Positions 599 through 21,795 are shown, numbered from the stretch's first letter. The stretch is DNA of 64,000 nt from Halioglobus sp. (GCA_036961205.1 JBALVI010000010.1:18377-82376); one strand, 5' to 3'. The notes: generated from the letters alone by a model not told the origin. Translations and numbers: made by a program.

Positions 599-1846
599 AT
601 GAAAAAATTACTCTTTATCACTCCGGAACTTCCCTATCCCGCCCAGAGTGGCGGCAAAGTTAAAAGCCTGAAACTGTTGCACGCTCTGGCTGAAAAATAC
701 GAGGTGACGCTGGCCTGCCCTCTCAAGATGGAGGATGCACAGTACGTCGAGGAGTTTTATGCTATCTCACCCTGCGCCCACCACTTGCACCAGGAAGTTA
801 GCATACCGCGTACACCGGGCAACCTCATCCTGAGCTATCTTCGAGGCATCCCCTTAAATGTACATCGCACTTACAACGTGCAATTACAAAACAACATCGC
901 GGCTTTAGCCAGCGAGCAGGACGTCGTTTTCCTGGATCATTATGAGGTTTACCCCTACCTGCCAACCGACTACCAAGGGCTGGCTATTTATCACGCACAC
1001 AATGCCTATTTCAAGATGTGGGAGCGTTACGCTCAACTGCCGGGAAATCCAATAATGCGTGCGGCAGCCTATATGGAATCTAGGCGAGTAAAAAAGTATG
1101 AAACTCAGGTTTCCAACAATACAGACCTGTCTTTTGCCGCTCCAAATGATGCCTTGGAGCTGGCTAAAGCAGGCGCGTGCAAAGACAAGCTGCATGAAAC
1201 CTTTCACCTGGGTGACGACCAGCAGCTCGAACTGCCCGAGCTGCAGTATGCCGACACCGAGAAAAAACTTATGTATGTTGGAATTCTGGGATGGGAGCCT
1301 AACTCCCAGGGACTGTTATGGTTCATTGATCAGGTCTGGCCGAAGTTAGTCGAGCGCCATCCGGACTTACAACTAGATATTGTCGGCAAGGGCCCGGACC
1401 AGCGACTGCAAGATGCAGCAGCCAAGTGGGCAGGTATAACCCTGAGAGGTTTCGTTCCCGATCTTCAGGGGATTTATAAAAACAGCCGCGTTTCCGTGGC
1501 ACCTCTCACGTTCGGTAGTGGTATGAAAGTCAAAGTACTGGACTCTATGACGAGAGGTATGCCCACCGTAACAACCAGTGTTGGTGCGGAAGGTATTGAT
1601 GTTGAGCACGGTACGCACATGCTAATCGCCGACGAACCTGCAGAAATGGCAACATACATAAATCAGCTTTTGAACGACCCCGAATTGTGGCTACACCTGC
1701 AAAAGAACTCCCGTGAACTGATCACTGAACGCTATACCTGGCGACAGCTGTTCATCCAGATGCACCGCACTATCGAATCCGGCTTGCACGATAAAAGGAA
1801 TATAAGCTCTAGACAGACAGAGCAAGGGCTGCTGCATGCAGGCTGA
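599..1846 (+). CDS. glycosyltransferase, GT-B fold group 1 (GT4-like)
   Basis: 415 aa. The N-terminus MKKLLFITPELPYPAQSGGK and the C-terminal block GSGMKVKVLDSMTRGMPTVTTSVGAEG...ADEPAEM are typical of group 1 glycosyltransferases. It sits in an EPS gene context. Confidence 0.88.
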   Translation: MKKLLFITPELPYPAQSGGKVKSLKLLHALAEKYEVTLACPLKMEDAQYVEEFYAISPCAHHLHQEVSIPRTPGNLILSYLRGIPLNVHRTYNVQLQNNIAALASEQDVVFLDHYEVYPYLPTDYQGLAIYHAHNAYFKMWERYAQLPGNPIMRAAAYMESRRVKKYETQVSNNTDLSFAAPNDALELAKAGACKDKLHETFHLGDDQQLELPELQYADTEKKLMYVGILGWEPNSQGLLWFIDQVWPKLVERHPDLQLDIVGKGPDQRLQDAAAKWAGITLRGFVPDLQGIYKNSRVSVAPLTFGSGMKVKVLDSMTRGMPTVTTSVGAEGIDVEHGTHMLIADEPAEMATYINQLLNDPELWLHLQKNSRELITERYTWRQLFIQMHRTIESGLHDKRNISSRQTEQGLLHAG

Positions 1847-3212
1847 TCAGACCACCGGGGGCGTCATTGCGGCTACCACTGGAGAGCTTGGCGCGCGGAC
1901 ACAGAAACTAGCGCATCTCGTAAACAAGCTCCTTCCCGCGCTCAAACTGGTGGCCAGCCGCGGCAGCGCCATTCTCGCTCAGTTCGCCGCCCAATTGGTC
2001 GTGGGAACGATGGCTGGCGCAGGCGCATTGGGCGCCCTGCAGCTGCTCACATCCTGGACATGCATAGCGGGTGAAGTGTTGGGACTTGGCCTGCCCACTC
2101 GCGCAATGAGGCAAGTGTCCATTAGTTACGAGCAGCAACAGCCGAAGCAAATATTGCAGACCCTGCGCGAATCGCGCAGAAAAATTTTCCGGCTGTGGCT
2201 TACGCTGGCTCTGCTCGCCGCTTTACCCGCTATCTTTTTGGCGCGCAGCCAAGACACCGCCACCTGGACCGAATATAGCTGGCTGTTAATAGCCGCCGGT
2301 CTTGCTGCGCCGCTTTTCTCTCTGGTACGACTGTATGCGGAATCACTGAAAGCCACCGGCGCTGCCTTGGCGGCGGTAACGATCGAGAGCCTGACCTCAC
2401 CACTGGCATTGCTGCTGGCCTGCGCCTACTGCTGGCTAGCAGGACATCCAGTCGTTACTTTCACCCTCGTTATGACTTTCGGACTGAGCCTGGTTATCAC
2501 GCCCGTGGCGTTAAGCCACAGGCTCAAGCAGCAAATCGCAGGACTTGCACTGTCAGCCACCAAAACTCGCGACGCTCACGCCCCATCAAAAGTTGAGCGT
2601 GGCGACCTGTTCTATCTATGGAGTACTGGTGTACTCAGTATCAGTTTCATGCATTTACCTTTTCTGGTGATGCCGCTCTACATGGATACCGAGCAGATAG
2701 GTGTTTTTGCCGTCGCCCATAAATTAATAAATGTCATTACCACCCTACTGCTCTTGTTAGCCGCCGTATTTGGACCCTCATTCGCCCGTTACGCCGCCCA
2801 AGACAATTCACAAGCGTTATTGGGCCTACTGCGGCGCACACAACTTATCTCCACCGCTGTGTTCCTGCCAGTCTCGCTACTGCTGATAGCACTAGCGGAA
2901 CCACTGGCAGGACTGTTCGGTGAGGACTTCGGTAATCTGCAAATATACCTTGCCATACTAGCCGCTGGACACTTGGTCAATGCGGCGACCGGCCTATCTG
3001 GCGTGCTCATGAACATGGCCGGTGCCGCGTCCAAGGAAATGTACACGCTGATCATTGCCATGATCGCGGCACTGGCCGGCAGCGCCTGGGTTGGCCCGGA
3101 GTACGGCGCAATCGGACTCGCAATAGTCTTTAGCAGCAGTATCGCCCTGAAAAATATTGCCTCCTATCTACTGGCAATAAACCTCCTGAAACCAGCAAGA
3201 GAATCATCGTGA
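1836..3212 (+). CDS. polysaccharide biosynthesis protein / Wzx-like flippase (MOP superfamily)
   Basis: 458 aa with many (10 or more by eye) hydrophobic segments. Overlaps the upstream GT by 11 nt. Position in an EPS operon is consistent with the call. Confidence 0.75.
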   Translation: MQADQTTGGVIAATTGELGARTQKLAHLVNKLLPALKLVASRGSAILAQFAAQLVVGTMAGAGALGALQLLTSWTCIAGEVLGLGLPTRAMRQVSISYEQQQPKQILQTLRESRRKIFRLWLTLALLAALPAIFLARSQDTATWTEYSWLLIAAGLAAPLFSLVRLYAESLKATGAALAAVTIESLTSPLALLLACAYCWLAGHPVVTFTLVMTFGLSLVITPVALSHRLKQQIAGLALSATKTRDAHAPSKVERGDLFYLWSTGVLSISFMHLPFLVMPLYMDTEQIGVFAVAHKLINVITTLLLLLAAVFGPSFARYAAQDNSQALLGLLRRTQLISTAVFLPVSLLLIALAEPLAGLFGEDFGNLQIYLAILAAGHLVNAATGLSGVLMNMAGAASKEMYTLIIAMIAALAGSAWVGPEYGAIGLAIVFSSSIALKNIASYLLAINLLKPARESS

Positions 3213-4153
3213 AACCACTAGACTTCCTGATTGTCGGTGCGCAGAAATGCGCCACCACCGCTCTGTTTGAACATCTTCGCAGCCATCCCGATATCGCTAT
3301 GCCGCTGGAAAAGGAGGTGCCGTTCTTTACCGGCCAGAATTGCTCCCAGGAGAGCTGGGAGGCTTTCGCGGATGAACAATTTGGCGCCGAACAACACAAC
3401 AAGCTGTGGGCCAAGGCGAGCCCGCAATACATGTCAGACCCCGACGTGCCGGCGCGCATTAAAGAACTGATGCCCGAGGTCAAGCTCGTGGCTATTTTAC
3501 GTGACCCAATGGAGCGCAGCTGGTCCCACTTTCAGATGGGGCGCCGCCGAGATACCGAGCATCGCGAGTTCACTGCGTCCATTGAAGCACTTCTTACAGA
3601 AGAAGCACTGCAAAGGGGGCGCACACTCCCGGCACCAGAACATACCGGGGGCTACGAGTCAGAGGCTGACTTCTACGTTGCCTGGAGTGAGTACGGACGC
3701 ATCCTCACTGAATTCACTGCATCTTTTGACCCCAAGCAAATACTAGTACTGTATACAGAGGATCTGGAAAAAGAACCAGCGGCTACCCTGGACCGTCTAT
3801 TGGATTTTATCGGACTACCCTCCGGCTTTCGCCCGCCGGCACTGGGTGAAGTCATCCACCGCGGCGGTGGCTCCAACAAGCGCATACCGCAATCTGTGCG
3901 GGAGTGGCTGCGGAATCGCAAGATCTTGTATAGATTGTGGCAGAGCGTGCCGGACGCGCGCCGCGGTCGCCTGCGCTTTCAGTATGAGCAGTGGAATATC
4001 CGGCGCAGCGGCAATACCCACGGCAATGACATGCTGCTACCTGAAGACCTGCAGGAACAACTGCGCAGGCACTACACTGCGGACATCGAATCACTGCTGT
4101 CCCTGCCAATAGCCCCGCCTCCCTGGCTAGATCGGTATCTGGCCAGTAGCTAA
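3209..4153 (+). CDS. PAPS-dependent sulfotransferase family protein
   Basis: The GTG start overlaps the flippase stop. It has a 5'-PSB-like loop (LIVGAQKCATTAL) and a 3'-PB-like motif (ILRDPMERSWSHF). Confidence 0.82.
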   Translation: MKPLDFLIVGAQKCATTALFEHLRSHPDIAMPLEKEVPFFTGQNCSQESWEAFADEQFGAEQHNKLWAKASPQYMSDPDVPARIKELMPEVKLVAILRDPMERSWSHFQMGRRRDTEHREFTASIEALLTEEALQRGRTLPAPEHTGGYESEADFYVAWSEYGRILTEFTASFDPKQILVLYTEDLEKEPAATLDRLLDFIGLPSGFRPPALGEVIHRGGGSNKRIPQSVREWLRNRKILYRLWQSVPDARRGRLRFQYEQWNIRRSGNTHGNDMLLPEDLQEQLRRHYTADIESLLSLPIAPPPWLDRYLASS

Positions 4154-4344
4154 TGACCAGCGCGATATCCAGAATCTATGAGTGCCTCTTCATTGGCAAT
4201 CGCAGCTTACGACTTCCGAAATTCCGCATTTTGCGAAACTGAAACTACCGCATTTTGCGGATTATTTTGCAAACTTGCCTTTCTGACTTTAAACAAAACT
4301 CCATAACCCATTGTTTTAATTGAGATTTAATTACTTTTACAAGT

Positions 4345-4360
4345 TGGCATCGGTATTGCT
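4345..4360 (+). promoter_or_regulatory. sigma-54 (-24/-12) promoter candidate P2, upstream of the export gene
   Basis: The sequence is TGGCATCGGTATTGCT, with GG at 4346-4347, N10, then GC at 4358-4359. It lies 40 nt upstream of the ATG at 4400. Confidence 0.7.
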
Positions 4361-4399: not shown

Positions 4400-7360
4400 A
4401 TGAGCAACGTACACCGCCCAACCATGCGAGCCGCCCTTGAGAAACTCGTGGCAGCACGCCAGTTCAGCGCAAGCCTGATCTCCTTATGCATCGCAGCAGT
4501 TGTCCTGTCCACACCAGCCATTGCCGTCAACGACGCTTACTTGTCCTATGTAGAACCCCTGCAATCCATTCAGGCAAGAAGCTATGCACAGTCCGCACCC
4601 CGAGGACAGGACGAGACCGTGCTGGACCCGGCTGAGCCAATACAGATACCGGTAGGCATCATTGAGAGAGAAGAATCCCGACTCGAGCAGATAGCCGATG
4701 AGAAAAGTGGCCCCCTGAACCTTGAGGAAACTCAACAGGAACAAGTGCTGCATTCCGACCTCACGCAATTTGGCTACGACATATTTAACCAGGTGCAGAG
4801 CGCGCCTGCTTCGGCATCGGGCATTCCCGTGCCACCCAACTACCTGATAGGCCCCGCGGACAACATCATCGTGCAGCTTTTCGGCAAGCGCAATGTGGAA
4901 TACAAGCTAATCGTAACCCGCGACGGCAACATCCTCGTACCTGAGTACGGCCCTATTAAAGTTGCCGGCATGACCTTCGACGAGGCAGAGCAGCTTATCA
5001 CTGTAGGTTTCGAACGACGGGTAATCGGTGCCAAAGTGGTGGTAACCATGGGGCAACTGCGCACTGTCCAGATACGACTCGCCGGAGATGTTACTCAACC
5101 TGGGGTCTACACCGTAGGCGGCCTCACCACCATGATAGACGCGCTGCTAACCACCGGTGGCGTACGACCCACCGGAACACTACGCAACATAGAACTAATC
5201 AGGGGCGGTGAGCGTATCGCTAGCCTGGATCTCTACGGCCTGCTATTGAACGGGCGCATCAACCAGGACTCTTATCTGGACCACAACGACACTATCTTCG
5301 TTCCACCCATCGGCCCTATCGTCTACGTGGGAGGCGAGGTACAACGCCCCGCTATCTACGAGATAAAAGGCGAAAAGACGGTGGGGCAGATAATCGGGAT
5401 GGCCGGCGGACTACTGCCGACCGCGTCACTGCAGCACTCACATATTGAGCGAATACAGGCAGCAGGTATTCGCACCCTGGTCGACTTTTCTACCACCAGC
5501 ACCCGCAGCCCCGAACAAGCAATTCTGGGCACTGCAGTCCAAACCGGAGATCTCCTGCGAATTTTGCCTCTGGAAGATGAATTGGAAGACATAATTTTAC
5601 TGTCGGGTCACGTTAAACGTCCCGGCGGGTTCCAATTCAGACCGGGTATGCGCATCTCCGACATTGTGCCCAGCGCCGAAGTTCTCCTGCCGGGTGCAGA
5701 CGTGGATTTCGTGCTCGTCAAAAGAGAAAACCTCAAAACCCTGCGCACCGAAGTGGTCTATGCCAACCTCATGCAGGCACTGACGAGCACCGGTGGCCAA
5801 GGTGATATTGAGCTGCAGTCACACGACCAAATCATGGTATTTAATCTGGCCAAAGATCGCGAACAGGTAGTGAACGACATTGTCCGGGAACTGGATATAC
5901 AGGCTACTCATCATCGTCCTGCCAGGGTCATCGAAGTTCGGGGAGCACTGCGCTACACCGGTAGGTTACCGCTAGAAGAAGGAGCCCGTCTGCTTGATAT
6001 TATCGCCCTGTCCGGGGGACTGCAGCCCGGCACGGAAATGTACTATGGCGTCATCGCACGCACCCGTTATCCCGAGCGGGATATCGAGGCCGTCCCATTC
6101 AAAATAGCCGCCGCCCTCGTCGATCCAGCAGCACCGGCTAACCTCGCCATCGAGCCGGGAGATCGGCTGTATTTCTTCGACGATCGGAGTGACCGCTCAG
6201 AATTATTGAACAGTGAAATCACCCGCCTGCGCCAACAAGCCAGTTATGGCGCGGATGAGCGCCTGGTGGCAATACAAGGTGAGGTGCTGCATTCGGGCAC
6301 CTACCCACTGGGGCACGATATGCGCGCCAGTGACTTGCTCTGCGCAGCTCGTGGCCTGACCCGCAAGGCTTATGGTTTGACCGCCGAGCTCTCACGCATA
6401 CAACGCAATGCCAGCAGCAGCAATGAGGTAAAGCACACAACACTGGACAGCTTGAAACTCCTGTCGCTTTGCGAACTCACAAAGCAGGCCGCAAGCGGGA
6501 GAATAAAGGTCACTGACAACAACGAATTACTCGCACTCTATGTCGATGAACACACTAACCCTATCCTGGCGCCCATGGACCAGCTAACTTTTACAGAGAA
6601 ATCAGGTTGGGTAGAGCGTGCCTCAGTAACGCTGTTTGGCGAAGTGCAGCGCCCAGGCGTATATGCCATAAATCGAGGTGAAACACTGTGCGAAGTTTTA
6701 CAACGCGCTGACGGCCTGACGCCCGAAGCCTATATCTTTGGCTCCGAATTCACCCGCGAATCGGTACGCGCCATGCAACAGGAAACTCTGGATGAACTGC
6801 AGGACCAACTAGACGACCTGATGATCGAGTTGTCTCTTTCCCATTCGTTCAACAACCGGGATAAAACAAGCCATGACTGGGCCGGCAGACAGGATTACAT
6901 CAAGACGATTCGCCAACTGGAGAGCGCTGAAGCCAATGGCCGCATGGTCATAAACCTGGAACGCGTAGTGGAATGCCGCAAGGGTGACCAACTGGCACTG
7001 GAAGACGGCGACACCCTGACCATACCGCATACACCGGACTACGTGCAGGTGTCGGGGCAGGTTTATGTACCCACTTCCCACTTATATGACGAAGACCGAA
7101 AGATCGGTGACTACGTTGAACTGAGCGGTGGTCATACGGTATTGGGCCGACTCAAGGATACCTTTGTGATTCAGGCTAATGGGGAAGTGCTCAACTACAA
7201 GGGGAGCCGGACCTCATCGCGGATCGCGCGCAAAACCGTTATGCCAGGGGCCAGGATCTATGTGCCACTGGATGTCGATCGCATGAATGGTACCGAGAAA
7301 GCACAGAGCTGGATTTCATCACTGATGCAGTCCGCAATACTCGCCGGCCTCCTTCTCTAG
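4400..7360 (+). CDS. polysaccharide export protein, Wza/SypC-like, with about seven SLBB-type repeats
   Basis: 986 aa with an N-terminal hydrophobic anchor. A Poly_export-like block is present (YLIGPADNIIVQLFG...DGNILVPEYGPIKVAGMTFDEAE). It is followed by repeated G-x-V-x-x-P-G-x-Y units: GDVTQPGVYTV, GEVQRPAIYEI, GHVKRPGGFQF, GALRYTGRLPL, GEVLHSGTYPL, GEVQRPGVYAI and GQVYVPTSHLY. Confidence 0.9.
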   Translation: MSNVHRPTMRAALEKLVAARQFSASLISLCIAAVVLSTPAIAVNDAYLSYVEPLQSIQARSYAQSAPRGQDETVLDPAEPIQIPVGIIEREESRLEQIADEKSGPLNLEETQQEQVLHSDLTQFGYDIFNQVQSAPASASGIPVPPNYLIGPADNIIVQLFGKRNVEYKLIVTRDGNILVPEYGPIKVAGMTFDEAEQLITVGFERRVIGAKVVVTMGQLRTVQIRLAGDVTQPGVYTVGGLTTMIDALLTTGGVRPTGTLRNIELIRGGERIASLDLYGLLLNGRINQDSYLDHNDTIFVPPIGPIVYVGGEVQRPAIYEIKGEKTVGQIIGMAGGLLPTASLQHSHIERIQAAGIRTLVDFSTTSTRSPEQAILGTAVQTGDLLRILPLEDELEDIILLSGHVKRPGGFQFRPGMRISDIVPSAEVLLPGADVDFVLVKRENLKTLRTEVVYANLMQALTSTGGQGDIELQSHDQIMVFNLAKDREQVVNDIVRELDIQATHHRPARVIEVRGALRYTGRLPLEEGARLLDIIALSGGLQPGTEMYYGVIARTRYPERDIEAVPFKIAAALVDPAAPANLAIEPGDRLYFFDDRSDRSELLNSEITRLRQQASYGADERLVAIQGEVLHSGTYPLGHDMRASDLLCAARGLTRKAYGLTAELSRIQRNASSSNEVKHTTLDSLKLLSLCELTKQAASGRIKVTDNNELLALYVDEHTNPILAPMDQLTFTEKSGWVERASVTLFGEVQRPGVYAINRGETLCEVLQRADGLTPEAYIFGSEFTRESVRAMQQETLDELQDQLDDLMIELSLSHSFNNRDKTSHDWAGRQDYIKTIRQLESAEANGRMVINLERVVECRKGDQLALEDGDTLTIPHTPDYVQVSGQVYVPTSHLYDEDRKIGDYVELSGGHTVLGRLKDTFVIQANGEVLNYKGSRTSSRIARKTVMPGARIYVPLDVDRMNGTEKAQSWISSLMQSAILAGLLL

Positions 7361-7424: not shown

Positions 7425-9026
7425 ATGGAGATATCTGACATGGCCACCATCACCTACCCGTCAACCCGGGACTGCTTTAACTCGCTGGGCATTCCCGTCG
7501 ACAACCTGTCACTGCAAGACGCAGTAGACCGAATCGTCGCGATGACAAAAGACTATAATGGAAGGACTCAGCTGGTTTCGACGCTAAACGTCGACTTCTT
7601 GGTGAATTCGCTGGGGTATGCGTTTACCCGGCCGCGCCATCCCGAACTGCTGAACGTATTGCGCTCATCGGATATGGTGACAGCGGATGGCTTCCCTATT
7701 ATCTGGTTAAGCAAAATCGTGGGTAAGCCCCTCAAGCAACGCGTCGCTGGCTCAGACCTGACACCGGCGCTGGCTGCGCGCGCAGCAAAAGAAGGGCTAT
7801 CACTTTTTCTGCTGGGAGGCGCTGAGGGACTGGCGGCCGCAGCGGCCAATGCCTTGCAGTTAGCAAACCCCACGTTGAAAATCGCCGGCACATCGGCGCC
7901 GTTCGTCAATACCCAGGGCCCCGCCCTGAAGGACTTCGCCGCAGATGACCAGGCCCTGCTGAAAAATATTAACAGTTCTGATGCTGACATATTGCTGGTA
8001 GGACTGGGCAATCCCAAGCAAGAGCTGTGGTTCAATCGCAATCGACATAAACTGCAGGTGCCTGTCGCTATTGGCGTGGGTGGCACTTTCGAGTTCATTA
8101 CCGGCACAGTCAAACGCGCACCCCGCTGGATGCAGAAATCCAATCTCGAGTGGCTATTTCGGATTACCCAGGACCCCGAACGGTTGTGGCGACGCTACGC
8201 AACGGGGATGATAAAACTCGCAGTACTGACAGCCCCGCTTATTTACTATCGCGCTAAAGAAAGTGTGTTTTACAGGCCCGCACCCGCTACCGAAGGACCC
8301 AGCATTGTCTGGCAATCTGTCTGGTCCTCTCGTAACCAATCACTGGCTGCGGTGCGACTCCCGCGTCTGGTCAGTGCCCGCTATCTGGAAAAACTGGTGT
8401 CTTCGTTGCAGCAAGAGCATGCCAGCACGGCACTGCGACTACTGGACTTCAGCAACGTCAAACATATTGAGATCGCCGGGCATCAGGAATTTTTTCGCCT
8501 TGCGCAGCTACTGACAGACCCGCAGAGCGATATTTCAGTACTGGGACTACCAAAGGCGGTTAAACGTCTGCTTGGCGCGTGTCGCATCATGGATGTAGTT
8601 GGCGAAAACCATAATGGCAACACACTTAGCACCTTGTCATATTCACCGCTCGACAAAAACGTACAGGAGACGGGCTGTAAAAGTTATGTCATGAGCAATA
8701 CGGCGCTTATGTTTCTGTCCGGCCGGGTCAACGGCGAGGGATTGGCAGGGATCGGCTTCGTGGAGTGCCTACTGCACGCCGCTCGAGACCGCACCTGTAT
8801 TGTCGATTTACGCAATGTAACACTACTGGAAAGTACGGCGATCGCCGAACTTGAACCGCTCATTGCGTCACACCAGACAAGTGGCGACGGTGCAATCATG
8901 GTCAGTGGGGCAGATGCCAATGCCCGTCAAATGTTCCGCATGACCGGGCTGGGCGAAAGCGTCATTTTTATTGACGATATAACCTTGCTGGCCAGCATCG
9001 CAGCTGAGGGCCAACATTATAAGTAA
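7425..9026 (+). CDS. WecB/TagA/CpsF-family glycosyltransferase fused to two C-terminal STAS-like domains
   Basis: The N-terminal ~270 aa carry TLNVDFLVNS, DGFPIIWLSK, LFLLGG, GLGNPKQELWF and GVGGTFEFITGTVKRAPRWMQKSNLEWLFRI. The C-terminal half has two segments resembling anti-sigma antagonist (STAS) cores: LDFSNVKHIEIAGHQEFFRL and DLRNVTLLESTAIAEL. The start may instead be the ATG at 7440, which has GGAG 9 nt upstream. Confidence 0.82.
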   Translation: MEISDMATITYPSTRDCFNSLGIPVDNLSLQDAVDRIVAMTKDYNGRTQLVSTLNVDFLVNSLGYAFTRPRHPELLNVLRSSDMVTADGFPIIWLSKIVGKPLKQRVAGSDLTPALAARAAKEGLSLFLLGGAEGLAAAAANALQLANPTLKIAGTSAPFVNTQGPALKDFAADDQALLKNINSSDADILLVGLGNPKQELWFNRNRHKLQVPVAIGVGGTFEFITGTVKRAPRWMQKSNLEWLFRITQDPERLWRRYATGMIKLAVLTAPLIYYRAKESVFYRPAPATEGPSIVWQSVWSSRNQSLAAVRLPRLVSARYLEKLVSSLQQEHASTALRLLDFSNVKHIEIAGHQEFFRLAQLLTDPQSDISVLGLPKAVKRLLGACRIMDVVGENHNGNTLSTLSYSPLDKNVQETGCKSYVMSNTALMFLSGRVNGEGLAGIGFVECLLHAARDRTCIVDLRNVTLLESTAIAELEPLIASHQTSGDGAIMVSGADANARQMFRMTGLGESVIFIDDITLLASIAAEGQHYK

Positions 9027-9331: not shown

Positions 9332-10753
9332 ATGGACACACAGGCAAAAGTACTCATGGTGGAAGACAGCATCTCGCTGTCGGCCATCTATGAAGCCTAT
9401 CTGGCAGACACCGACTACAAACTAGTATGCGTTGAGACGCTCGGCTCAGCGCACGCAACATTGGGGGCCTTCCAGCCGGATATTATTCTGCTGGACATCG
9501 AACTGCCAGACGGCAATGGCATGGACTTTCTGGACGAAGCAGCTGCCCTGGAACCCGCACCCAAGATCATTATCATGACCGCACACGGCAGCTCGGATAT
9601 GGCGGTGGAGGCAATCCAGAAAGGCGCATTCGACTTCCTGACCAAACCATTTGATGCAGCCCGCCTTAGAGTGACATTGGACAACGCCGCCGCCCAACTA
9701 ACACTGGGTAAAAGAGCCGACAAACTGGCACAGCTTGAGCGAGATCACTACTGCAATTTCATTGGTAAATCACTGGCAATGCAATCAGTGTACAAAACTA
9801 TCGATTCTCTGGCCGCCAGCGATGCCACCGGCTTTATCGTCGGGGAAAGCGGCACAGGGAAGGAGTTGGCCGCGGAAGCCATCCACCAGCAAAGCCCGCG
9901 CCACGACGCCGAATTCATAGCCATCAACTGCGGCGCCATACCCGGTGAACTGATGGAAAGCGAGCTGTTCGGACACGTCAAGGGTGCGTTTACTGGAGCC
10001 AGCACCAACCGCGAAGGCGCCGCCAGCGTTGCCAATGGCGGTACTCTATTCCTGGATGAGATTTGCGAGATGAGCCTGGATTTGCAGAAAAAACTGCTGC
10101 GCTTCATCCAAACTGGAACTTTCCGCAAGGTGGGCAGTAATACATTGGAACAGGTGGATGTGCGCTTTGTATGCGCGACCAATCGGGATCCGTTGGTAGA
10201 AGTTCGCGAGGGGCGCTTTCGTGAAGACCTTTTTTATCGACTGCATGTTATACCGGTACGGATGCCGCCATTGCGCGAACGAGAGGCCGATGTGCTAATG
10301 ATCGCCAATCATTTCCTGCAGCAGTTCAGCGACCGTGAAGGCAAGCAGTTTGACGGCTTTTCAGAGGATGCGGCCGAGGCCATTCGTCGCTACCCCTGGC
10401 CAGGTAATGTGCGCCAGCTGCAGAACGCAATGCAGCAAGTTGTGGTGCTCAACGAAGGAACAGCAGTGGATTATCACATGCTTCCCGATCTGGTTATTAG
10501 CGGCAACCTGGAGCATGAGACGCCATTTACGGCCACAGTTTCTTCGATTACCAGTCCGCGCGAACCGGGGGCGCAACAGGCGCATATGACACGCCGACAG
10601 CAGATCGAACCGTTATGGCTCACTGAAAAAAATACTGTGGAGGCGGCGATTGATTCTTGCGATGGCAACATTAACCAGGCTGCCGGACTGCTTGAAGTAG
10701 CACCGTCAACCCTTTACCGAAAATTGCAGTCCTGGAAGAAAATGCAGGCCTGA
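9332..10753 (+). CDS. sigma-54-dependent response regulator (REC-AAA+-HTH), LuxO/SypG-like
   Basis: It has a receiver (DIILLDIELPDGNG), Walker A (GESGTGKE), the GAFTGA loop (HVKGAFTGAS) and a Fis-type HTH (INQAAGLLEVAPSTLYRKL). Long collinear blocks match Vibrio LuxO as recalled from memory: LLRFIQTGTF.KVGS, VDVRFVCATNRDP, EGRFREDL.YRL and PLW.TEK. Confidence 0.9.
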   Translation: MDTQAKVLMVEDSISLSAIYEAYLADTDYKLVCVETLGSAHATLGAFQPDIILLDIELPDGNGMDFLDEAAALEPAPKIIIMTAHGSSDMAVEAIQKGAFDFLTKPFDAARLRVTLDNAAAQLTLGKRADKLAQLERDHYCNFIGKSLAMQSVYKTIDSLAASDATGFIVGESGTGKELAAEAIHQQSPRHDAEFIAINCGAIPGELMESELFGHVKGAFTGASTNREGAASVANGGTLFLDEICEMSLDLQKKLLRFIQTGTFRKVGSNTLEQVDVRFVCATNRDPLVEVREGRFREDLFYRLHVIPVRMPPLREREADVLMIANHFLQQFSDREGKQFDGFSEDAAEAIRRYPWPGNVRQLQNAMQQVVVLNEGTAVDYHMLPDLVISGNLEHETPFTATVSSITSPREPGAQQAHMTRRQQIEPLWLTEKNTVEAAIDSCDGNINQAAGLLEVAPSTLYRKLQSWKKMQA

Positions 10754-10778
10754 TCACAACCAGCAAGGAAATTTTGCC

Positions 10779-11330
10779 ATGTACGGCTTAATAAATAATT
10801 CTCTAAAAAGTATGATACTCGAACAGTTCGGCGAGGAGCAGTGGCAGAAGGTGCTGTCGAGTTCTGGTGTTTCAGAAGATTCTTTTCTCACCATGCGCAG
10901 CTATGACGACAGTATTACTTACTCGCTGGCGGGTGCCGCAGCGGAAGTACTGGGCGCGCCGGTAGAAGTCTGCCTTGAGATGTTCGGTGAATATTGGGTA
11001 TTGGAAACCGCGACCAAATCATACGGCATGCTGCTCAATGCTACGGGGCAGGACATGATCGAATTTCTGGGTAATATGAATGCCCTGCATGATCGTATTA
11101 CCAGTACCTTCCTCAACTACACTCCCCCTGAGTTCTTTATCGAAACCAAGGAAAGCCACCATCTTATTCACTATGTGAGTCAGCGGGAGGGCTTAACGCC
11201 TTTTGTTGTGGGGCTACTTAAGGGCCTCGCGAAACGGTTTAACAGCACGCTCACCATCATATCGCAGAGCGAAGTGGCAGTAGATCATGGCGCACACACC
11301 ATTTTTGAAGTAGAGATATTAGCTGCATGA
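10779..11330 (+). CDS. hnoX: H-NOX (heme nitric oxide/oxygen binding) sensor protein
   Basis: 183 aa with N-terminus MYGLINNSLKSMILEQFGEE. It has a candidate proximal His in NALHDRITS, a conserved Pro region (YTPPEF) and the YxSxR heme-propionate motif as YVSQR. Its stop overlaps the kinase start (ATGA). Confidence 0.88.
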   Translation: MYGLINNSLKSMILEQFGEEQWQKVLSSSGVSEDSFLTMRSYDDSITYSLAGAAAEVLGAPVEVCLEMFGEYWVLETATKSYGMLLNATGQDMIEFLGNMNALHDRITSTFLNYTPPEFFIETKESHHLIHYVSQREGLTPFVVGLLKGLAKRFNSTLTIISQSEVAVDHGAHTIFEVEILAA

Positions 11331-13402
11331 ACCGGCCGCTGAACATCTGCTGGAAGGACTTGCACAGCCTGTTCTCTGTTGTGATGTGTATCGACGAATC
11401 CATGAACCTAATCTACGCTAGCGAAACACTCAGTAAGTGCTTACCTGAAACAAAGCATAAACCCAAACTGCTAGAGATATTCGATACCTTGCGACCAGCT
11501 TCACTAGCGACCTTCAATGATGGAATCAACGCCCTGGACTCGCTTTGCCTGCTAACGGCAAAGAATGGAAAATTCGCTATCAGGGGACAGCTATTACGCA
11601 CGCAGTATCAGGAGCAGGATGTTTTATGCTTCTGCGGAGCACCGTGGCTGTTCTGGATCAACACAAATTGTCCTGAAATCAAATTGGGCCTAAGTGACTT
11701 TTCAGCCCAGGATGTCCAGCTGGACCAGTTGTTCTTCATGTCCACAGAAAGACAAATGGTTGATGACCTGGAACAACTGAACACAGATCTAAAGGCCGCC
11801 AAACAACAGCTGGAAGAGGCGCAGGAAGCGCAAAGACAGTTCTTTGCCCAAATGAGTCATGAAATTCGAACACCGTTAAACGGTGTGGTTAGCGCCCTGT
11901 CGCTGCTGGACCATCACCCAACGGGCCCCGAACAGTTCAACCTCATTCGACTTGCTCGAAGTTCATCCGAAAATCTGATGCAGGTGATCAATTATGTACT
12001 GAACGTATCTAAACTGGAACTCTCACCCCATCGAGACCAGGAACTATTCAGCTGGCCAGACTTGATCCGCTCCTCGATCGATATTGTCGTAGCCAAAGCG
12101 GAAGAGAAATCATTGCAGGTTGAGCTCGACATTTCACCCGACTTACCAAACACCTGTTATGGCAATCCCGCCCGTTTAAGGCAAACTTTGTTAAATCTCG
12201 CCATCAATGCAATCAAGTTTACTGACACAGGCACGATCACTATCCGCGCGCTGCCTGTGCACCATGCACAAGACCATTGCATTCTGCGGCTGGAGGTCAT
12301 CGATACAGGAATTGGTATCCTGGAAGACCACTTACCCCATATCTTCGACCCTTTCTGGAGCTTTCAGCCGGACCGTACTGCCGCGCAAACTGACCGCCGC
12401 GCATATGACGAGGGCACTGGGCTCGGCCTGGATATCGTGAGGCGTAATGTTCGAAGCATGGGCGGGGAAGTCATGGTGAAATCCACACCAGGTCAAGGGG
12501 CAAAGTTCTGGTTCGAACTGCCAGTAACACTGCCACACGAAACCCAGTCGCCATCCGAGAACGCACCGGCGCAACAGGAACCAGACACGGTGGAACTTAC
12601 AGGCAGGGTCATGTTGGTAGACGACAATGAGACCAATTTGTTACTGGGCTCCATGATCCTGGAATCAATGGGACTTGAAGTAACCAAGGTCGACAGTGGT
12701 GGCGCCGCTGTAGCCACAGCGAGGCAACAACAATTCGACCTCGTACTGATGGATATCAGCATGCCAGACATCGATGGACTGGACGCCACCCGGCAAATTC
12801 GCGCCTTCGCCGGCAGCGACCTGCTGCCGATTGTTGCCCTAACGGCCCGTACAGACGATAAAGAGAAAGCAGCCTGCCTTGACATCGGAATGGATGATTA
12901 CCTGACCAAACCCATTGTCCGGGAGGAACTCCATAAAGCGCTAGCTACCTGGCTCGCTAAAGATAAAAAAACGCATTCAAACGAAGCTGCCGAAAGCATG
13001 AAATACGAGAGCAACGCAGTGGATACTGAACTTGTGACCCAAAGTGTCATAGATGAATTGATTCGACAAATAGGGCGTGACAACTTACGGATTGTAATCA
13101 GCAAAGTGCGAACCGAAGCTACCCAGCGCTGGGATGAACTGGTAACTGCCGACAAACAGGGCGATAGGGACGCGACACAGCGCCATGTGCATAGCCTGGC
13201 AAGTATTTTCCGCAGCGTAGGCCTCATGCCAGTGGGCGATGCACTCGGGGCGATAGAAGCCAAATTGCGCGCCGGCAAAGAAGTACCGTCGGGGTGGCTG
13301 AATGAGCTCGAGAAGCTAAAAACCGATAGTATCATCGCTTTGGCAGAGCAAATGGAAGAACAGTCAAAACCCTCGCCGAAAATTCAAACCGACACTAAAT
13401 AA
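11327..13402 (+). CDS. H-NOX-associated hybrid sensor histidine kinase (HisKA-HATPase-REC-Hpt)
   Basis: It has an H-box (FFAQMSHEIRTPLNGV), N box (LLNLAINAIKFT), G boxes (DTGIGI, GTGLGLDIV) and a receiver (VMLVDDNETN...LVLMDISMPDIDG...DDYLTKP). The C-terminal Hpt-like motif is HVHSLASIFRSVG. It has no obvious TM segments, so it is probably cytoplasmic. Confidence 0.9.
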   Translation: MNRPLNICWKDLHSLFSVVMCIDESMNLIYASETLSKCLPETKHKPKLLEIFDTLRPASLATFNDGINALDSLCLLTAKNGKFAIRGQLLRTQYQEQDVLCFCGAPWLFWINTNCPEIKLGLSDFSAQDVQLDQLFFMSTERQMVDDLEQLNTDLKAAKQQLEEAQEAQRQFFAQMSHEIRTPLNGVVSALSLLDHHPTGPEQFNLIRLARSSSENLMQVINYVLNVSKLELSPHRDQELFSWPDLIRSSIDIVVAKAEEKSLQVELDISPDLPNTCYGNPARLRQTLLNLAINAIKFTDTGTITIRALPVHHAQDHCILRLEVIDTGIGILEDHLPHIFDPFWSFQPDRTAAQTDRRAYDEGTGLGLDIVRRNVRSMGGEVMVKSTPGQGAKFWFELPVTLPHETQSPSENAPAQQEPDTVELTGRVMLVDDNETNLLLGSMILESMGLEVTKVDSGGAAVATARQQQFDLVLMDISMPDIDGLDATRQIRAFAGSDLLPIVALTARTDDKEKAACLDIGMDDYLTKPIVREELHKALATWLAKDKKTHSNEAAESMKYESNAVDTELVTQSVIDELIRQIGRDNLRIVISKVRTEATQRWDELVTADKQGDRDATQRHVHSLASIFRSVGLMPVGDALGAIEAKLRAGKEVPSGWLNELEKLKTDSIIALAEQMEEQSKPSPKIQTDTK

Positions 13403-13762: not shown

Positions 13763-13775
13763 TTGCATTCTGCAA
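13763..13775. promoter_or_regulatory. perfect TTGCA-N3-TGCAA palindrome (candidate LuxO-type enhancer site)
   Basis: TTGCATTCTGCAA, centred about 90 bp upstream of the -24 GG of promoter P4. Confidence 0.5.
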
Positions 13776-13857: not shown

Positions 13858-13873
13858 TGGCACGCAACTTGCT
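13858..13873 (+). promoter_or_regulatory. sigma-54 (-24/-12) promoter candidate P4
   Basis: The sequence is TGGCACGCAACTTGCT, with GG at 13859-13860, N10, then GC at 13871-13872. This is a full consensus match. It is co-oriented with the ORF at 13966. Confidence 0.72.
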
Positions 13874-13965: not shown

Positions 13966-14220
13966 ATGCAAACCCTAACGGCACAACACAGCACATCATC
14001 CTCAGCTCAGCCCTATCGACGCCGCGCCTGTACAGACTCAGGGTATGTGATGGATCCACTAAGTCTGGCCCACTTGAATTTCGGTTTATTCGGGACTCTT
14101 TGCAAGCTTGGCACCTCACAGGAACGAATTTGTTCCGCCTTGAATATCAGCTATCGAGACTTCGACTATCTTCAGGAACTTACCTCTACTCAGCGTCAGA
14201 AATTAAGCGGCGGGGGCTAA
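13966..14220 (+). CDS. hypothetical small protein (84 aa) ending in SGGG
   Basis: It has a strong SD (AAGGAG, 7 nt spacer, ATG) and lies downstream of sigma-54 promoter P4. No family recognised. Confidence 0.55.
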   Translation: MQTLTAQHSTSSSAQPYRRRACTDSGYVMDPLSLAHLNFGLFGTLCKLGTSQERICSALNISYRDFDYLQELTSTQRQKLSGGG

Positions 14221-17174: not shown

Positions 17175-18488
17175 ATGTCAAAACAACAGGAACTCGATGC
17201 CCTGGTGCAATCCATTGCGGTATCGGGCGAGCAGCTACCGGGCCTGGAACGAAGAAAATTCCTCAAGCAGGGAATTATCATGCTTGGAGCAGCGGGCGTT
17301 GCCAGCGCGACGGATGTTACCTCTGCAGGCTCTGGAACGCCACCCGATGTACCCCCCTGGACAAAGAGCCTGGGACCCGGCGTTGTCAGCAACCCCTACG
17401 GGGCCCCTTCCCCATTTGAGGCTCACGTTAAACGCCGAACGGTTGAATGGCTGACGGCGGATAAGATTGCCTCCATCAGCTTTACCCCCCTCGCAGATTT
17501 GAAGGGTATTATTACCCCCAGTGGCGTGGTCTTCGAGCGCTATCACGCCGGTGTTCCGGCCGTTGATCCCGGCATCCACAGGCTGATGATTCACGGCATG
17601 GTAGACCGCCCGATTATCCTTTCGATGGATGATCTGATGCGCTTTCCGTCCGTCAGTATGATCAGGTTTCTGGAATGTCCTGCCAATGGAGGAATGGAAT
17701 GGCGAGGCGCACAAATGGACAGACTGCAATTCAGCCATGGCATGCTCGCATGCTGTGAATGGACAGGCGTGCTGCTGTCTACCCTGCTACAGGAGGTTGG
17801 TGTACAAAAAGGTGCGGGGTGGGTGCTGGCAGAGGGGGCCGACGGTTCCCACATGAGTCGCAGTATCCCGATGGATAAGGCGATGGACGATGCGCTTATC
17901 GTCTACGCGCAGAATGGCGAAGCCCTGCGACCTGAACAAGGTTACCCCGTGCGGTTGATCAACCCTGGTTGGGAGGGCAATACCTGTGTCAAGTGGCTGC
18001 GGCGTCTCGAAATCGGTGATAAACCCTGGCATCACCGCGAGGAAACATCGAAGTACACTGACTTAATGCCCGATGGCAAAGCTCGCGAGTTCACCTACGT
18101 ACAAGAATGTAACTCCGTTGTCACCAGCCCCTGCCCGGAAAACCCATTGAGTAAGCCCGGCAAAGTCTGGGTGGAAGGACTTGCCTGGTCCGGTCGAGGA
18201 AAGATAAAACACGTCGATGTATCATTTGACGGCGGCGTTACCTGGCGGCCTACGCGCTTTACCAGCTCGGTATTGCCGCGCGCTCTGACACGGTTTGGGG
18301 TCGAGTGGGACTGGAATGGCAACACGGCGCTGGTGCAAAGTAGAGCCGTTGACGAGACCGGCTACGTACAGCCTACCTATGGTCAATTGCGTGATGTGCG
18401 GGGGTCTTCGTCGGTCTACCACAAGAATGCGATCCATACCTGGAGAGTCAACAGCAATGGGAGTGTGAGCAATGTGCAGATTTCCTAG
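17175..18488 (+). CDS. soxC: sulfane dehydrogenase molybdopterin subunit SoxC
   Basis: 437 aa with a Tat-like signal (ERRKFLKQG). It is sulfite-oxidase-family-like and lies directly upstream of, and overlapping, a diheme cytochrome (soxD) within a sox cluster. Confidence 0.88.
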   Translation: MSKQQELDALVQSIAVSGEQLPGLERRKFLKQGIIMLGAAGVASATDVTSAGSGTPPDVPPWTKSLGPGVVSNPYGAPSPFEAHVKRRTVEWLTADKIASISFTPLADLKGIITPSGVVFERYHAGVPAVDPGIHRLMIHGMVDRPIILSMDDLMRFPSVSMIRFLECPANGGMEWRGAQMDRLQFSHGMLACCEWTGVLLSTLLQEVGVQKGAGWVLAEGADGSHMSRSIPMDKAMDDALIVYAQNGEALRPEQGYPVRLINPGWEGNTCVKWLRRLEIGDKPWHHREETSKYTDLMPDGKAREFTYVQECNSVVTSPCPENPLSKPGKVWVEGLAWSGRGKIKHVDVSFDGGVTWRPTRFTSSVLPRALTRFGVEWDWNGNTALVQSRAVDETGYVQPTYGQLRDVRGSSSVYHKNAIHTWRVNSNGSVSNVQIS

Positions 18489-19386
18489 CGCTATTTCAGG
18501 GTTGTTTGTACTAGCGCTAACCGGGTTCAACGCCGCTGCGGCAGACACACCCAAGCAAGCGGCTTATTACGGCTATGGCGAACAGGCAACTGCTGAGCAG
18601 ATATCAGGTTGGGATATCGATGTGCGCCCTGACGGAAAAGGCCTGCCTCCCGGCAGTGGGTCTGTGGAAGATGGCGAGTATCTCTACGAGGAGCAATGCG
18701 CGGAATGCCACGGTTCCTTTGGCGAAGGTGAGGGGCAGTTCCCCGTGCTGGCCGGTGGTGAGGGCAGCTTGCAGGATGCCCGCCCACAAAAAACCGTGGG
18801 CAGTTTCTGGAACTACACGAGTACCTTGTGGGATTACATTCACCGAGCAATGCCGTTCACCCAACCTGAGTCGCTCAGTGATGACGAGGTCTATGCGGTG
18901 ACGGCTTACGTGCTATATCTCAATGAGCTGGTGGAAGATGATTTCGTATTGACGCAACAGAACCTGGCCGAAATCAAGCTGCCCAACGAGGCAAATTTTG
19001 TTCCCGATCCGCGACCGGATGTGCATAACACGCGTTGCATGAAAAATTGCAGGGATCCGAAAAAAATTACGATAATGTCTGAAGCTCCCCAGTATATCCC
19101 GGACCCTACTATACTTGAGGAGACTCCCCAGACGAGCGCCGGCTCGGTGGTATATCTGCAAAGCTGCGCCCTGTGTCACGACAGAGGATTGGGCGGTGCG
19201 CCGACGATTGGTAACGCAGCTCAATGGTCTGGCAGAGTTAGTCAGGGCACTGAAGTACTGTACAACCACGCTATCAATGGCTATCAAGGTGAGTTGGGGA
19301 TGATGCCGGCCAAGGGCGGCTTCGTGCAACTGTCAGATGATGAGGTCAAGGCGGCGGTGGATTACATAATGGAGCTCAGCCAGTGA
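18472..19386 (+). CDS. soxD: diheme cytochrome c SoxD
   Basis: It has a signal peptide and two CxxCH motifs (CAECH, CALCH). It is coupled to soxC. Confidence 0.85.
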   Translation: MCRFPSAISGLFVLALTGFNAAAADTPKQAAYYGYGEQATAEQISGWDIDVRPDGKGLPPGSGSVEDGEYLYEEQCAECHGSFGEGEGQFPVLAGGEGSLQDARPQKTVGSFWNYTSTLWDYIHRAMPFTQPESLSDDEVYAVTAYVLYLNELVEDDFVLTQQNLAEIKLPNEANFVPDPRPDVHNTRCMKNCRDPKKITIMSEAPQYIPDPTILEETPQTSAGSVVYLQSCALCHDRGLGGAPTIGNAAQWSGRVSQGTEVLYNHAINGYQGELGMMPAKGGFVQLSDDEVKAAVDYIMELSQ

Positions 19387-19766
19387 AAAATCGAACCGGA
19401 CAGCCCAGAGTTATGATGGTGATCCTCCACGGCCTAGGTGTGACCGCCATGACTTTGTTGGGCGGGCTCCCCTCCCTCGCACATGCGAGCCCCGAATCAA
19501 TCGCGGCTGGCGAGCAGGTTGCTTCCGACCGCAAGCTGGGAAATTGTTACTCATGCCATATGGTCGTTGGTGCCGAACTTGCTGGCAATGCCGGCCCCCC
19601 TCTAATACAGATGAAGAGCCGCTATCCGGACCGCGCAGTACTGCGGGCACAAATTGCCGACCCCCGCAGCCGTAACCCCAATACCATTATGCCGCCCTAT
19701 GGGGCGCACAACATTTTAACCGAACAGCAACTCGACCAACTGGTCGATTATGTGCTGTCACTTTAA
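19383..19766 (+). CDS. soxX: monoheme cytochrome c SoxX
   Basis: 127 aa with a single CYSCH and an IMPPYG motif. The GTG start overlaps the soxD stop, and the gene precedes soxYZA. Confidence 0.82.
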   Translation: MKNRTGQPRVMMVILHGLGVTAMTLLGGLPSLAHASPESIAAGEQVASDRKLGNCYSCHMVVGAELAGNAGPPLIQMKSRYPDRAVLRAQIADPRSRNPNTIMPPYGAHNILTEQQLDQLVDYVLSL

Positions 19767-19794
19767 ACCTGACCGAGACCACGAGGAGTATTCA

Positions 19795-20250: not shown

Positions 20251-20274
20251 CATAAACATATTAGGAGATTAGTC

Positions 20275-20586: not shown

Positions 20587-20606
20587 ATTTAACAAAGAGA
20601 TTTCAT

Positions 20607-21434: not shown

Positions 21435-21435
21435 C

Positions 21436-21777: not shown

Positions 21778-21795
21778 ACACTATAGGACAGGCAA

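Follow-up and report, generated by a model that had tools for sequence, protein, structure and literature searches.

How a STAS domain, the fold of the anti-sigma-factor antagonists, can control polysaccharide production where no sigma factor takes part has been a question since the description of SypA and SypE in Vibrio fischeri, and a first direct answer came only in 2026, from a fusion protein of Anabaena. The same question is raised by an open reading frame (ORF) at positions 7425-9026, plus strand, of a 64,000-nucleotide stretch from a metagenome-assembled genome of Halioglobus sp. (GCA_036961205.1 JBALVI010000010.1:18377-82376; "the window" below is this whole stretch). The ORF encodes 533 amino acids, a glycosyltransferase (GT) domain and then two STAS domains, and such proteins are labelled in the databases plainly as WecB/TagA/CpsF glycosyltransferases. 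An earlier note had read it as a WecB/TagA/CpsF enzyme with two C-terminal STAS domains, and had proposed that the STAS module acts directly on a WecG/TagA-type step of exopolysaccharide (EPS) synthesis. Pfam, NCBIfam, family profiles and AlphaFold/Foldseek all bear out the architecture, and we find that the window copy belongs, as a derived member with no linked kinase, to a broad GT26-STAS-STAS family that has so far gone undescribed. The explanation that we favor, with somewhat better than even confidence, is that of an active second-step GT26 enzyme whose tandem STAS tail acts in cis as a regulatory module on a membrane-activation appendage.

Both STAS domains could be verified by profile and by predicted structure (residues are numbered from position 7425, as in the earlier note). 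STAS-2 (residues ~417-528; 8673-9008, plus strand) is anti-sigma-antagonist-like: the Pfam STAS family (PF01740) matched residues 447-514 at a borderline 23.3 bits against a gathering score of 22.6, and NCBIfam gave a weak ant_ant_sig match. The corresponding region of the family profile matched the SpoIIAA-like structure 4hyl (E 4.5e-6), TM1442 (5e-5), MlaB and SpoIIAA, and the orthologous STAS-2 domains of distant fusions scored 57-83 bits with Pfam STAS. STAS-1 (residues ~296-392; 8310-8600, plus strand) is divergent and MlaB/STAS_2-like. Taken as a single sequence, it matched PF13466 (STAS_2) at residues 319-383 with 22.9 bits, under the 29.2 cut-off, while its family profile matched MlaB (E 2.7e-4), 4hyl (E 8.7e-4) and also YtvA and the STAS domains of SLC26 proteins. 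Aligned with each other in hhalign, the STAS-1 and STAS-2 profiles gave 93% probability (E 3e-7), and when the free STAS domain of an unrelated protein served as the jackhmmer query, both units were recovered in every family member.

The predicted structures agree with the profiles. The full-length AlphaFold model, built on an alignment of 112 homologues, had a mean predicted local distance difference test score (pLDDT) of 82.3 and a predicted template modelling score of 0.78, and is laid out as a GT core (17-250), a long helix (251-282), a STAS domain (296-392), a disordered linker (395-412) and a second STAS domain (417-528). Foldseek superposed it on SpoIIAA and RsbV with template modelling (TM) scores of 0.79-0.86. 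A stand-alone model of STAS-1 (pLDDT 81) had SpoIIAA, TM1442 and RsbV as its top matches (TM 0.6-0.68), and all of its top 14 matches were STAS proteins or had a SpoIIAA-like fold. The inter-STAS linker (residues 393-416; 8601-8672, plus strand) is of low model confidence and poorly conserved. A STAS fold is thus found twice in the C-terminal half, by profiles and by predicted structures alike.

The glycosyltransferase half (core residues ~17-250; 7473-8174, plus strand) was assigned by profiles, structures and residue alignment. Pfam Glyco_tran_WecG (PF03808) matched residues 82-258 over its entire profile (1-168 of 168; E 1.6e-61, 207.5 bits against a cut-off of 27.4), NCBIfam wecG_tagA_cpsF (TIGR00696) matched at E 5e-47 (159.9 bits against 69), and the profile of the 112 homologues matched the solved TagA structure 7mpk at E 4e-49. 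In Foldseek, the full-length model fitted TagA (7mpk/5wfg) with TM 0.92-0.93 and a root-mean-square deviation of 1.7 Å. The NCBIfam equivalogs for EpsA (148 bits against 500), TarA (117 against 350) and WecG (PRK03692; 96 against 323) were not reached; the protein is a member of the GT26 superfamily that stands outside these named orthologue groups.

The residues that matter in TagA are T37, N39, D65, R83, Q167 and E168, together with R214, R221 and R224 of its C-terminal appendage, which completes the active site and shifts the enzyme from an inactive cytoplasmic dimer to an active membrane-bound monomer (Kattke et al., PMC6493773). In the fusion, the first six align with T53, N55, D88, R106, Q199 and E200, the appendage arginines align with R246, R253 and R256/257, and all of these positions are invariant or at least 90% conserved among the 112 homologues. 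The equivalent of the appendage (residues ~234-282; 8124-8270, plus strand) carries these arginines on an amphipathic helix: residues 242-262 are strongly amphipathic (hydrophobic moment 0.6-0.7) and the helix runs on to residue 282. No transmembrane segment was found in the fusion, where hydropathy over 19 residues reaches at most 1.51, short of the customary threshold; on this value and the amphipathic segment, a transmembrane helix between GT and STAS of the kind predicted for the Anabaena fusion, All4160, was rejected. The glycosyltransferase half thus looks catalytically competent and of a peripheral-membrane type.

TagA and TarA (Thermoanaerobacter italicus and Bacillus subtilis; 5WB4, 5WFG, 7MPK, 7N41) share with the fusion their fold, at ~30% identity, the catalytic residues, the Arg-bearing membrane-binding appendage and, as predicted for the fusion, a lipid-linked sugar substrate. 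TagA ends after the appendage, at ~244 amino acids, whereas the fusion goes on for ~250 residues that make up the two STAS domains, and the context of TagA/TarA is wall teichoic acid, whereas that of the fusion is a Gram-negative sulfated-EPS locus. Since the STAS module is joined directly to the end of the TagA-like appendage, it would be well placed to gate membrane activation.

The translation start is probably the second ATG, at 7440 (M6), which gives a protein of 528 amino acids, rather than the ATG at 7425, because a GGAG (7427-7430) lies ~9 nucleotides 5' of it and homologues are annotated with 528 amino acids and the N-terminus MATIT.

How widely this architecture occurs bears directly on what the STAS domains are for. 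A single-sequence phmmer search with the STAS half against 1.84 billion representatives returned 32 clusters, all from Gammaproteobacteria except for one weak Planctomycetota multi-STAS protein. The idea of a rare, lineage-restricted module was dropped once a profile-guided scan had exposed the sensitivity limit of phmmer: single-sequence counts greatly understate the distribution of fast-evolving regulatory domains. Run on one genome per species, the profile-guided scan found 204 relatives, of which 80 loci were kept. Full-length GT26-STAS-STAS proteins were present in 59 of these, and four loci of relatives (L001-L004) brought the same combination of Glyco_tran_WecG and STAS to 63 species genomes, several phyla and, by the scan, at least five. 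Close relatives occur in Halieaceae, Congregibacter, Pseudomaricurvus and related marine Gammaproteobacteria. Other carriers are further Gammaproteobacteria (Contendobacter, Thiohalomonas, bivalve symbionts), Desulfobacterales, Geobacteraceae and Nitrospira and, on the side of the Planctomycetes-Verrucomicrobia-Chlamydiae (PVC) group, Victivallales, Chlamydiales, Parachlamydiaceae and Phycisphaerales. The 63 fusion loci divide into 36 of the Halieaceae type, to which the window belongs, and 27 of other clades; neighboring genes were scored within 10 kb.

A number of variants of the architecture were seen on the way. A Contendobacter member (L045:9995-12088, 697 amino acids) has an extra C-terminal NUDIX domain, a metagenomic protein (P0034, 931 amino acids) has a GT4/GT1 domain ahead of GT26-STAS-STAS, and Kiritimatiellia and Lentisphaeria have GT4-WecG fusions that lack STAS (L073, L074). 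Four WecG ORFs of the PVC group that had been classed as unfused (L069, L070, L075 and L084; 339-360 amino acids) end in a short partial STAS_2 match, of 28 bits in L084, and may represent the fusion in an intermediate or decayed state.

Outside the Halieaceae-type clade, nearly all fusions have two canonical STAS domains, for example FIDSSGLG and FVDSSGLV, that score far above the Pfam cut-off, and many lie beside the enzymes of a partner switch. A PP2C (SpoIIE) phosphatase was found in 10 and an RsbW-like HATPase_c_2 kinase in 8 of the 27 loci, many of which sit on short contigs; these neighbors were verified with Pfam. In five gammaproteobacterial loci (L042, L052, L053, L055, L057), the fusion is followed within ~50 bp by a REC-SpoIIE protein and then by the RsbW-like kinase. 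In two chlamydial loci, a REC-SpoIIE-HATPase_c_2-STAS protein heads the operon, upstream of the fusion, and in a Phycisphaerales locus a kinase and a free STAS protein are directly upstream. SpoIIE proteins with sensor domains were found in Contendobacter (Cache-HAMP-SpoIIE) and at a Desulfobacteraceae locus (PAS-SpoIIE), and the Geobacteraceae loci contain free STAS proteins together with an Hpt protein and a hybrid kinase. Hybrid kinases, of PAS type where Pfam was run, were present in 9 of the 27 loci; in L053 and L059 a PAS hybrid kinase is directly upstream of the fusion, that of L053 having PAS, REC and Hpt domains by Pfam.

The same parts also occur as separate genes. The closest unfused WecG orthologues come from Lentisphaeria, Kiritimatiellia, Victivallales and Parachlamydiales, and at 8 of 13 such loci the WecG gene is within 10 kb of a REC-SpoIIE-HATPase_c_2 protein, which has the domain content of SypE, and/or of a free STAS protein of 107-126 amino acids. 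This fused-versus-separate (Rosetta-stone) pattern is evidence that GT26 transferases and partner-switching modules are functionally linked, and the gene neighborhoods suggest that the ancestral fusion was most likely controlled by a partner-switching kinase/phosphatase pair.

A further association was noted in Geobacteraceae, Nitrospira and Desulfobacteraceae (L040, L043, L050, L049, L041): the start codon of the fusion is overlapped by a Bac_transf gene for a small priming enzyme, which fits the two transferases acting on consecutive steps. In the same group, an NTP_transferase-hexapeptide-Bac_transf protein follows the fusion.

The idea of an EPS transferase controlled in cis by a STAS domain is of a known kind, with All4160 as a precedent. 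This Anabaena protein is a STAS-Bac_transf fusion whose regulators are a phosphatase, HenR, and a kinase, Alr3423; among its homologues are All2285 and XssP, the latter of the pathway for the sulfated EPS synechan, the phospho-control rests on genetic and in vitro evidence, and the architecture is stated to be rare outside cyanobacteria (Harada, Matsuoka and Ehira 2026, PMC13555669). Like the fusion studied here, All4160 has STAS joined covalently to an early lipid-linked EPS transferase, in the case of XssP also for a sulfated product, and its control lies with a kinase of the RsbW type and with HenR, a REC-SpoIIE phosphatase; genes for such enzymes adjoin many of the non-Halieaceae fusions. 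The two differ in that All4160-type proteins are priming phosphoglycosyl transferases with a single N-terminal STAS domain, whereas the fusion is a predicted second-step GT26 enzyme with a C-terminal tandem, and in that no kinase or phosphatase is linked to it in the clade of the window. A search of the available literature library for STAS together with WecG, TagA or CpsF returned no paper naming both.

SpoIIAA and RsbV offer another comparison. They share with the fusion the STAS fold and a serine at the N-terminus of helix alpha-2 after an acidic residue, but they are free proteins whose output is the release of a sigma factor, whereas the fusion is part of an enzyme and has no sigma/anti-sigma pair nearby. 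The structural match to these antagonists, which are established to titrate their kinase, also allows signalling to be read in reverse: depending on the substrate or membrane state of the transferase, the membrane-tethered STAS domains would bind an RsbW-type kinase or anti-sigma factor or let it go, so that the state of EPS assembly feeds back on transcription. The free STAS proteins that stand beside the fusion in L040, L043, L054, L068 and L072 might compete with it for a single kinase. However, the loci examined showed neither a sigma factor nor an anti-sigma target gene, the clade of the window has no linked kinase, and the genetics of All4160 indicate control of the enzyme itself. We consider signalling in this direction very unlikely.

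Which of the two STAS domains would carry a switch, and whether it still works in the clade of the window, can be asked of the residues. The motifs quoted in the earlier note lie where it had placed them, LDFSNVKHIEIAGHQEFFRL of STAS-1 at 8442-8501 and DLRNVTLLESTAIAEL of STAS-2 at 8805-8852, and its reading that STAS-1 has lost the phospho-serine and STAS-2 has kept Ser-Thr holds across the clade. In STAS-1, the equivalent residue 350 is Ile in the fusion and Leu, Met, Ile or Phe in homologues, and the phosphorylatable residue is lost. In STAS-2 (D461-L-R463...L-E469-S470-T471-A-I), position 470, which corresponds to S58 of SpoIIAA, holds Ser or Thr in 109/112 homologues (102 Ser, 7 Thr), and position 471 is Ser or Thr in 105. 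Of the 63 genomes, 56 have Ser at position 470 and one has Thr. S470 (codon 8832-8834, plus strand), the candidate phospho-acceptor or switch residue, caps helix alpha-2 at the start of helix 470-486 of the model, and the order of secondary structure in STAS-2 is canonical. Among gammaproteobacterial fusions with a linked kinase, the STAS-2 motif is always DS[TA]GL while the STAS-1 position varies (S/T/F/P), which indicates STAS-2 as the phospho-acceptor.

Within the Halieaceae-type clade, STAS-1 and STAS-2 have mean identities of 46-47%, against 24% for the linker, and truncated forms of the fusion were found in none of its 36 species, a pattern by which the STAS domains are under constraint. 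A rough neighbor-joining tree places this clade as sister to the gammaproteobacterial clade with linked phosphatase and kinase, and because of this placement the loss of linkage, the loss of the STAS-1 serine and the change from DSSGL to ESSAI are taken as derived states. Two changes lie next to S470: the canonical Asp before the serine has become Glu (E469, 8829-8831), and R463 (8811-8813) is present in 112/112 Halieaceae-type homologues, with S, T, E, H or other residues in its place in other clades. E469 and R463 are almost or fully invariant, and these clade-specific changes may mark an altered mode of switching.

Several observations weigh against a switch that is still operated by phosphorylation here. 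A PP2C- or RsbW-like gene lies within 10 kb in 0 of the 36 Halieaceae-type loci, and none was found in the window, by Pfam on ORFs to 45 kb or by profiles run on all stop-to-stop ORFs of at least 60 amino acids over the 64 kb, in keeping with the remark of the earlier note that no SypE-like kinase or phosphatase lies there. In the STAS-2 motif, DSSGL has given way to ES[ST][AG]I, with R463 invariant, and this could mean a changed, phosphorylation-independent role. MlaB, a STAS protein that is not phosphorylated, also has a conserved Ser/Thr at this position, so that conservation of S470 alone is no proof of phosphorylation. As for the enzyme itself, its sugar specificity and reaction step are suggested by family membership and gene order only.

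The missing linkage and the change in the STAS-2 motif would suit a lineage in which the tandem has become a docking module that works independently of phosphorylation, as MlaB does on MlaF. It would tether the transferase to the priming transferase, the flippase, the Wzz-like protein or the exporter, or stabilize an oligomeric or membrane state. MlaB, the STAS subunit of MlaFEDB, regulates an enzyme by binding, without phosphorylation, and is the top Protein Data Bank sequence match of the STAS-1 profile, a domain that has itself lost the serine; it is, on the other hand, a free subunit on an ABC ATPase, and the locus of the fusion has no ABC transporter. In many members of the clade, the fusion gene is overlapped at its start by a Wzz-like gene of ~300-318 amino acids, an arrangement suggestive of a stoichiometric partner. 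Against such a role, S470 is kept as Ser or Thr in 97% although identity in the domain falls to ~20%, whereas the STAS-1 equivalent has drifted freely; the sister clade has the linked kinase/phosphatase pair; and the kinase and phosphatase of All4160 are likewise encoded away from its gene, so missing linkage does not amount to missing enzymes. We regard docking alone as the main rival account, serious but rather doubtful.

Returning to the cis-regulatory reading, the tandem would be a switch inherited from an ancestor under partner-switching kinase/phosphatase control, with STAS-2 and S470 as the regulatory unit and STAS-1, its serine lost, as a partner with a structural or adaptor role. If the comparison with SypA and All4160 holds, the protein would be active when unphosphorylated. 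As the linked kinase and phosphatase are gone, S470 would be either modified by enzymes encoded elsewhere or permanently unphosphorylated; that it is still phosphorylated in Halieaceae by such distant enzymes is a fair-sized possibility, though we would stop short of calling it probable. The claim of the earlier note that STAS acts directly on a WecG/TagA step therefore stands in part: the general Rosetta-stone pattern speaks for it, and for the Halioglobus protein itself control by partner switching is unproven, because of the absence of linked enzymes in its clade and the degeneration of STAS-1.

The genes around the fusion suggest what it might make. In the Halieaceae-type clade, the order is a divergent Bac_transf gene, GT4, a Wzx-like flippase, a sulfotransferase, a SypC-like exporter, in some members the Wzz-like gene, and the fusion, followed in some by GT2 and a gene of no recognized family, and then by a sigma-54 response regulator, H-NOX and a hybrid kinase (REC, Hpt). 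Over the 36 loci, the regulator and H-NOX are each present in 34, the exporter in 33, and the kinase and the sulfotransferase each in 32. In the window, the EPS genes (599-4153, plus strand) are GT4/GT1 (599-1846), the Wzx-like flippase (1836-3212) and the sulfotransferase (3209-4153), and the SypC-like polysaccharide exporter (Poly_export and SLBB; 4400-7360, plus strand) lies directly upstream of the fusion, with which it probably shares one operon. On this basis, the fusion enzyme would most likely attach the second sugar, with the undecaprenyl-diphosphate-sugar from the small Bac_transf priming enzyme of the locus as its acceptor, in a Wzx-dependent pathway whose product would be a sulfated exopolysaccharide.

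The sulfotransferase, together with an apparently sulfated product, also bears on a role as ligand sensor, in which STAS would bind a nucleotide, nucleotide-sugar, lipid, or sulfate or 3'-phosphoadenosine 5'-phosphosulfate and tune the transferase allosterically, as in SulP/SLC26 proteins. The weak profile and fold similarity of STAS-1 to SLC26/SulP STAS domains and the NUDIX domain of the Contendobacter relative point in this direction. Yet the closest matches of the domains are anti-sigma antagonists rather than transporter STAS domains, the ancestral association is with protein kinases and phosphatases, and no binding-site motif was identified, so that we consider sensing of this kind highly improbable.

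At the edge of the EPS locus in the closest relatives, a BLUF blue-light sensor gene (L004:386-862, from a relative with 91% identity) stands beside the divergent Bac_transf gene; it was not conserved in the more distant clade members examined. Elsewhere in the window, there are a sox-type sulfur-oxidation cluster (17175-23559; molybdopterin oxidoreductase, cytochromes c, SoxY, SoxA-like and SoxB-like) and a 1052-amino-acid Cache/SBP sensor with HD-GYP-type HD_5 domains (27127-30285), a possible cyclic di-GMP phosphodiesterase.

Downstream of the fusion lies a regulatory triad (9332-13402, plus strand), made up of a LuxO/SypG-like sigma-54 regulator (9332-10753), H-NOX (10779-11330) and a hybrid kinase (11327-13402) with the domains HNOBA-HisKA-HATPase-REC-Hpt. 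The top NCBIfam match of the regulator is LuxO, at 619 bits, below the equivalog cut-off of 800; SypG is a relative of LuxO. The triad suggests that sulfated EPS in the OM60/NOR5 group is under nitric-oxide-responsive control of the LuxO/SypG type. Both types of clade have hybrid kinases with an Hpt relay, linked to H-NOX in 32 of the 36 Halieaceae-type loci. What differs is the receiver output, which is REC-PP2C in other clades and REC-AAA+ (LuxO-like) in the Halieaceae type; V. fischeri has both, as SypE and SypG.

Candidate elements for such control were found in front of two EPS operons. A candidate sigma-54 promoter, TGGCATCGGTATTGCT (4345-4360, plus strand), with one mismatch, follows two GCATTTTGCG repeats (4226-4235 and 4250-4259), and the exporter-fusion operon is putatively controlled from this region (4226-4360). 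A second -24/-12 site with one mismatch lies at 397-412, with a copy of GCATTTTGCG upstream of it at 257-266. The repeat occurs three times in the 64 kb, against 0.45 expected, and all three copies are 85-140 bp upstream of the sigma-54-like sites, which makes them candidate enhancer sites for the LuxO/SypG-like activator. Counts of sigma-54 promoter and LuxO-box matches over the whole window were not above chance, and it is only the positions of the sites and the GCATTTTGCG repeat that are suggestive of sigma-54 control. In the favored reading, the fusion would be transcribed from these sigma-54 promoters under the LuxO/SypG-like regulator, with input from H-NOX and the hybrid kinase.

Past the triad, we noted a perfect sigma-54 -24/-12 element, TGGCACGCAACTTGCT, at 13858-13873, a perfect TTGCA-N3-TGCAA palindrome of the LuxO-box form upstream of it (13763-13775), and downstream an ORF of 84 amino acids with a strong ribosome-binding site (13966-14220). 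A Qrr-like small RNA behind this promoter was considered and rejected, as there was no Rfam match and the small ORF with its good ribosome-binding site is found there instead; its product, a small protein, may be among the targets of the LuxO-like regulator.

The term "syp-like", which the earlier note applied to this locus, is apt for the LuxO/SypG-like regulator, the H-NOX/hybrid-kinase pair and the SypC-like exporter, and does not extend to SypA and SypE: neither a free SypA-like STAS protein nor SypE was found in the window or in its clade relatives. The syp system has further features in common with what is described here. SypA is a STAS protein that controls polysaccharide below transcription, SypE carries a REC domain fed by a hybrid-kinase/Hpt relay, the system has LuxO-like SypG and H-NOX/HahK inputs, and the PVC-group relatives carry the same parts as separate genes. 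SypA is a free single domain, however, whereas here the link is covalent, and the order in SypE is kinase-REC-PP2C as against REC-PP2C-kinase in the neighbors described here.

This likeness would be put to its strongest use if the fusion identified a TagA/WecG-type step as the downstream target of SypA itself, a target that was unknown in 2015 and was described as "below syp transcription" in 2025. The PVC-group loci that pair unfused WecG with free STAS and a REC-SpoIIE-HATPase_c_2 protein, and the parallel between the regulator, H-NOX and hybrid kinase of the window and SypG and HnoX/HahK, would favor it. The enzymes of the syp locus, however, are GT4/GT2 transferases and the Bac_transf protein SypR, and we know of no GT26 enzyme among them; the fusion therefore cannot name the target of SypA. 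The window has no SypA or SypE homologue, and the other known STAS fusion is to a Bac_transf protein, the family of SypR, so what the fusions indicate is an early lipid-linked step. We judge it unlikely that a TagA/WecG-type enzyme is the target in V. fischeri, and extrapolation from the fusion to SypA is weak. Taken as an analogy, the fusion and All4160 together would narrow the SypA-type hypothesis to early lipid-linked steps.

A wider reading would join these parts: partner-switch gating, across phyla, of the second lipid-linked EPS step through the TagA-type appendage, a rewiring in Halieaceae, and an extension to SypA. In Halieaceae, the nitric-oxide-responsive H-NOX/hybrid-kinase-Hpt relay would drive transcription via the LuxO/SypG-like activator, and the same relay, via an unlinked REC-PP2C phosphatase, would set the phosphorylation of S470, so that the synthesis of the enzyme and its activity would both answer to one signal. 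Extended to other systems, the reading would have free STAS regulators of EPS, SypA among them, act on the transferases of the early lipid-linked steps in their own pathways. As a whole this combination is speculative, and we put it forward only tentatively, as more improbable than probable by some distance.

For the biology of the family, the GT26-STAS-STAS proteins would follow the same logic as the Anabaena fusion with a different enzyme, a GT26 second-step transferase, and they span Gammaproteobacteria, Desulfobacterota, Nitrospira, Chlamydiae, Lentisphaerae and Planctomycetes. Three states coexist among them and their relatives: fused with two canonical sites, fused with one site degenerate, and unfused beside a free STAS and a SypE-like protein. 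They offer testable targets, namely the early lipid-linked steps and the TagA-type membrane-activation appendage, and a natural evolutionary series for the fate of a switch domain after the loss of its kinase. The family as a whole is thus of more interest than the single copy of the window, which, for its part, points to nitric-oxide-linked, sigma-54-dependent synthesis of a sulfated EPS in the abundant marine Halieaceae of the OM60/NOR5 group.

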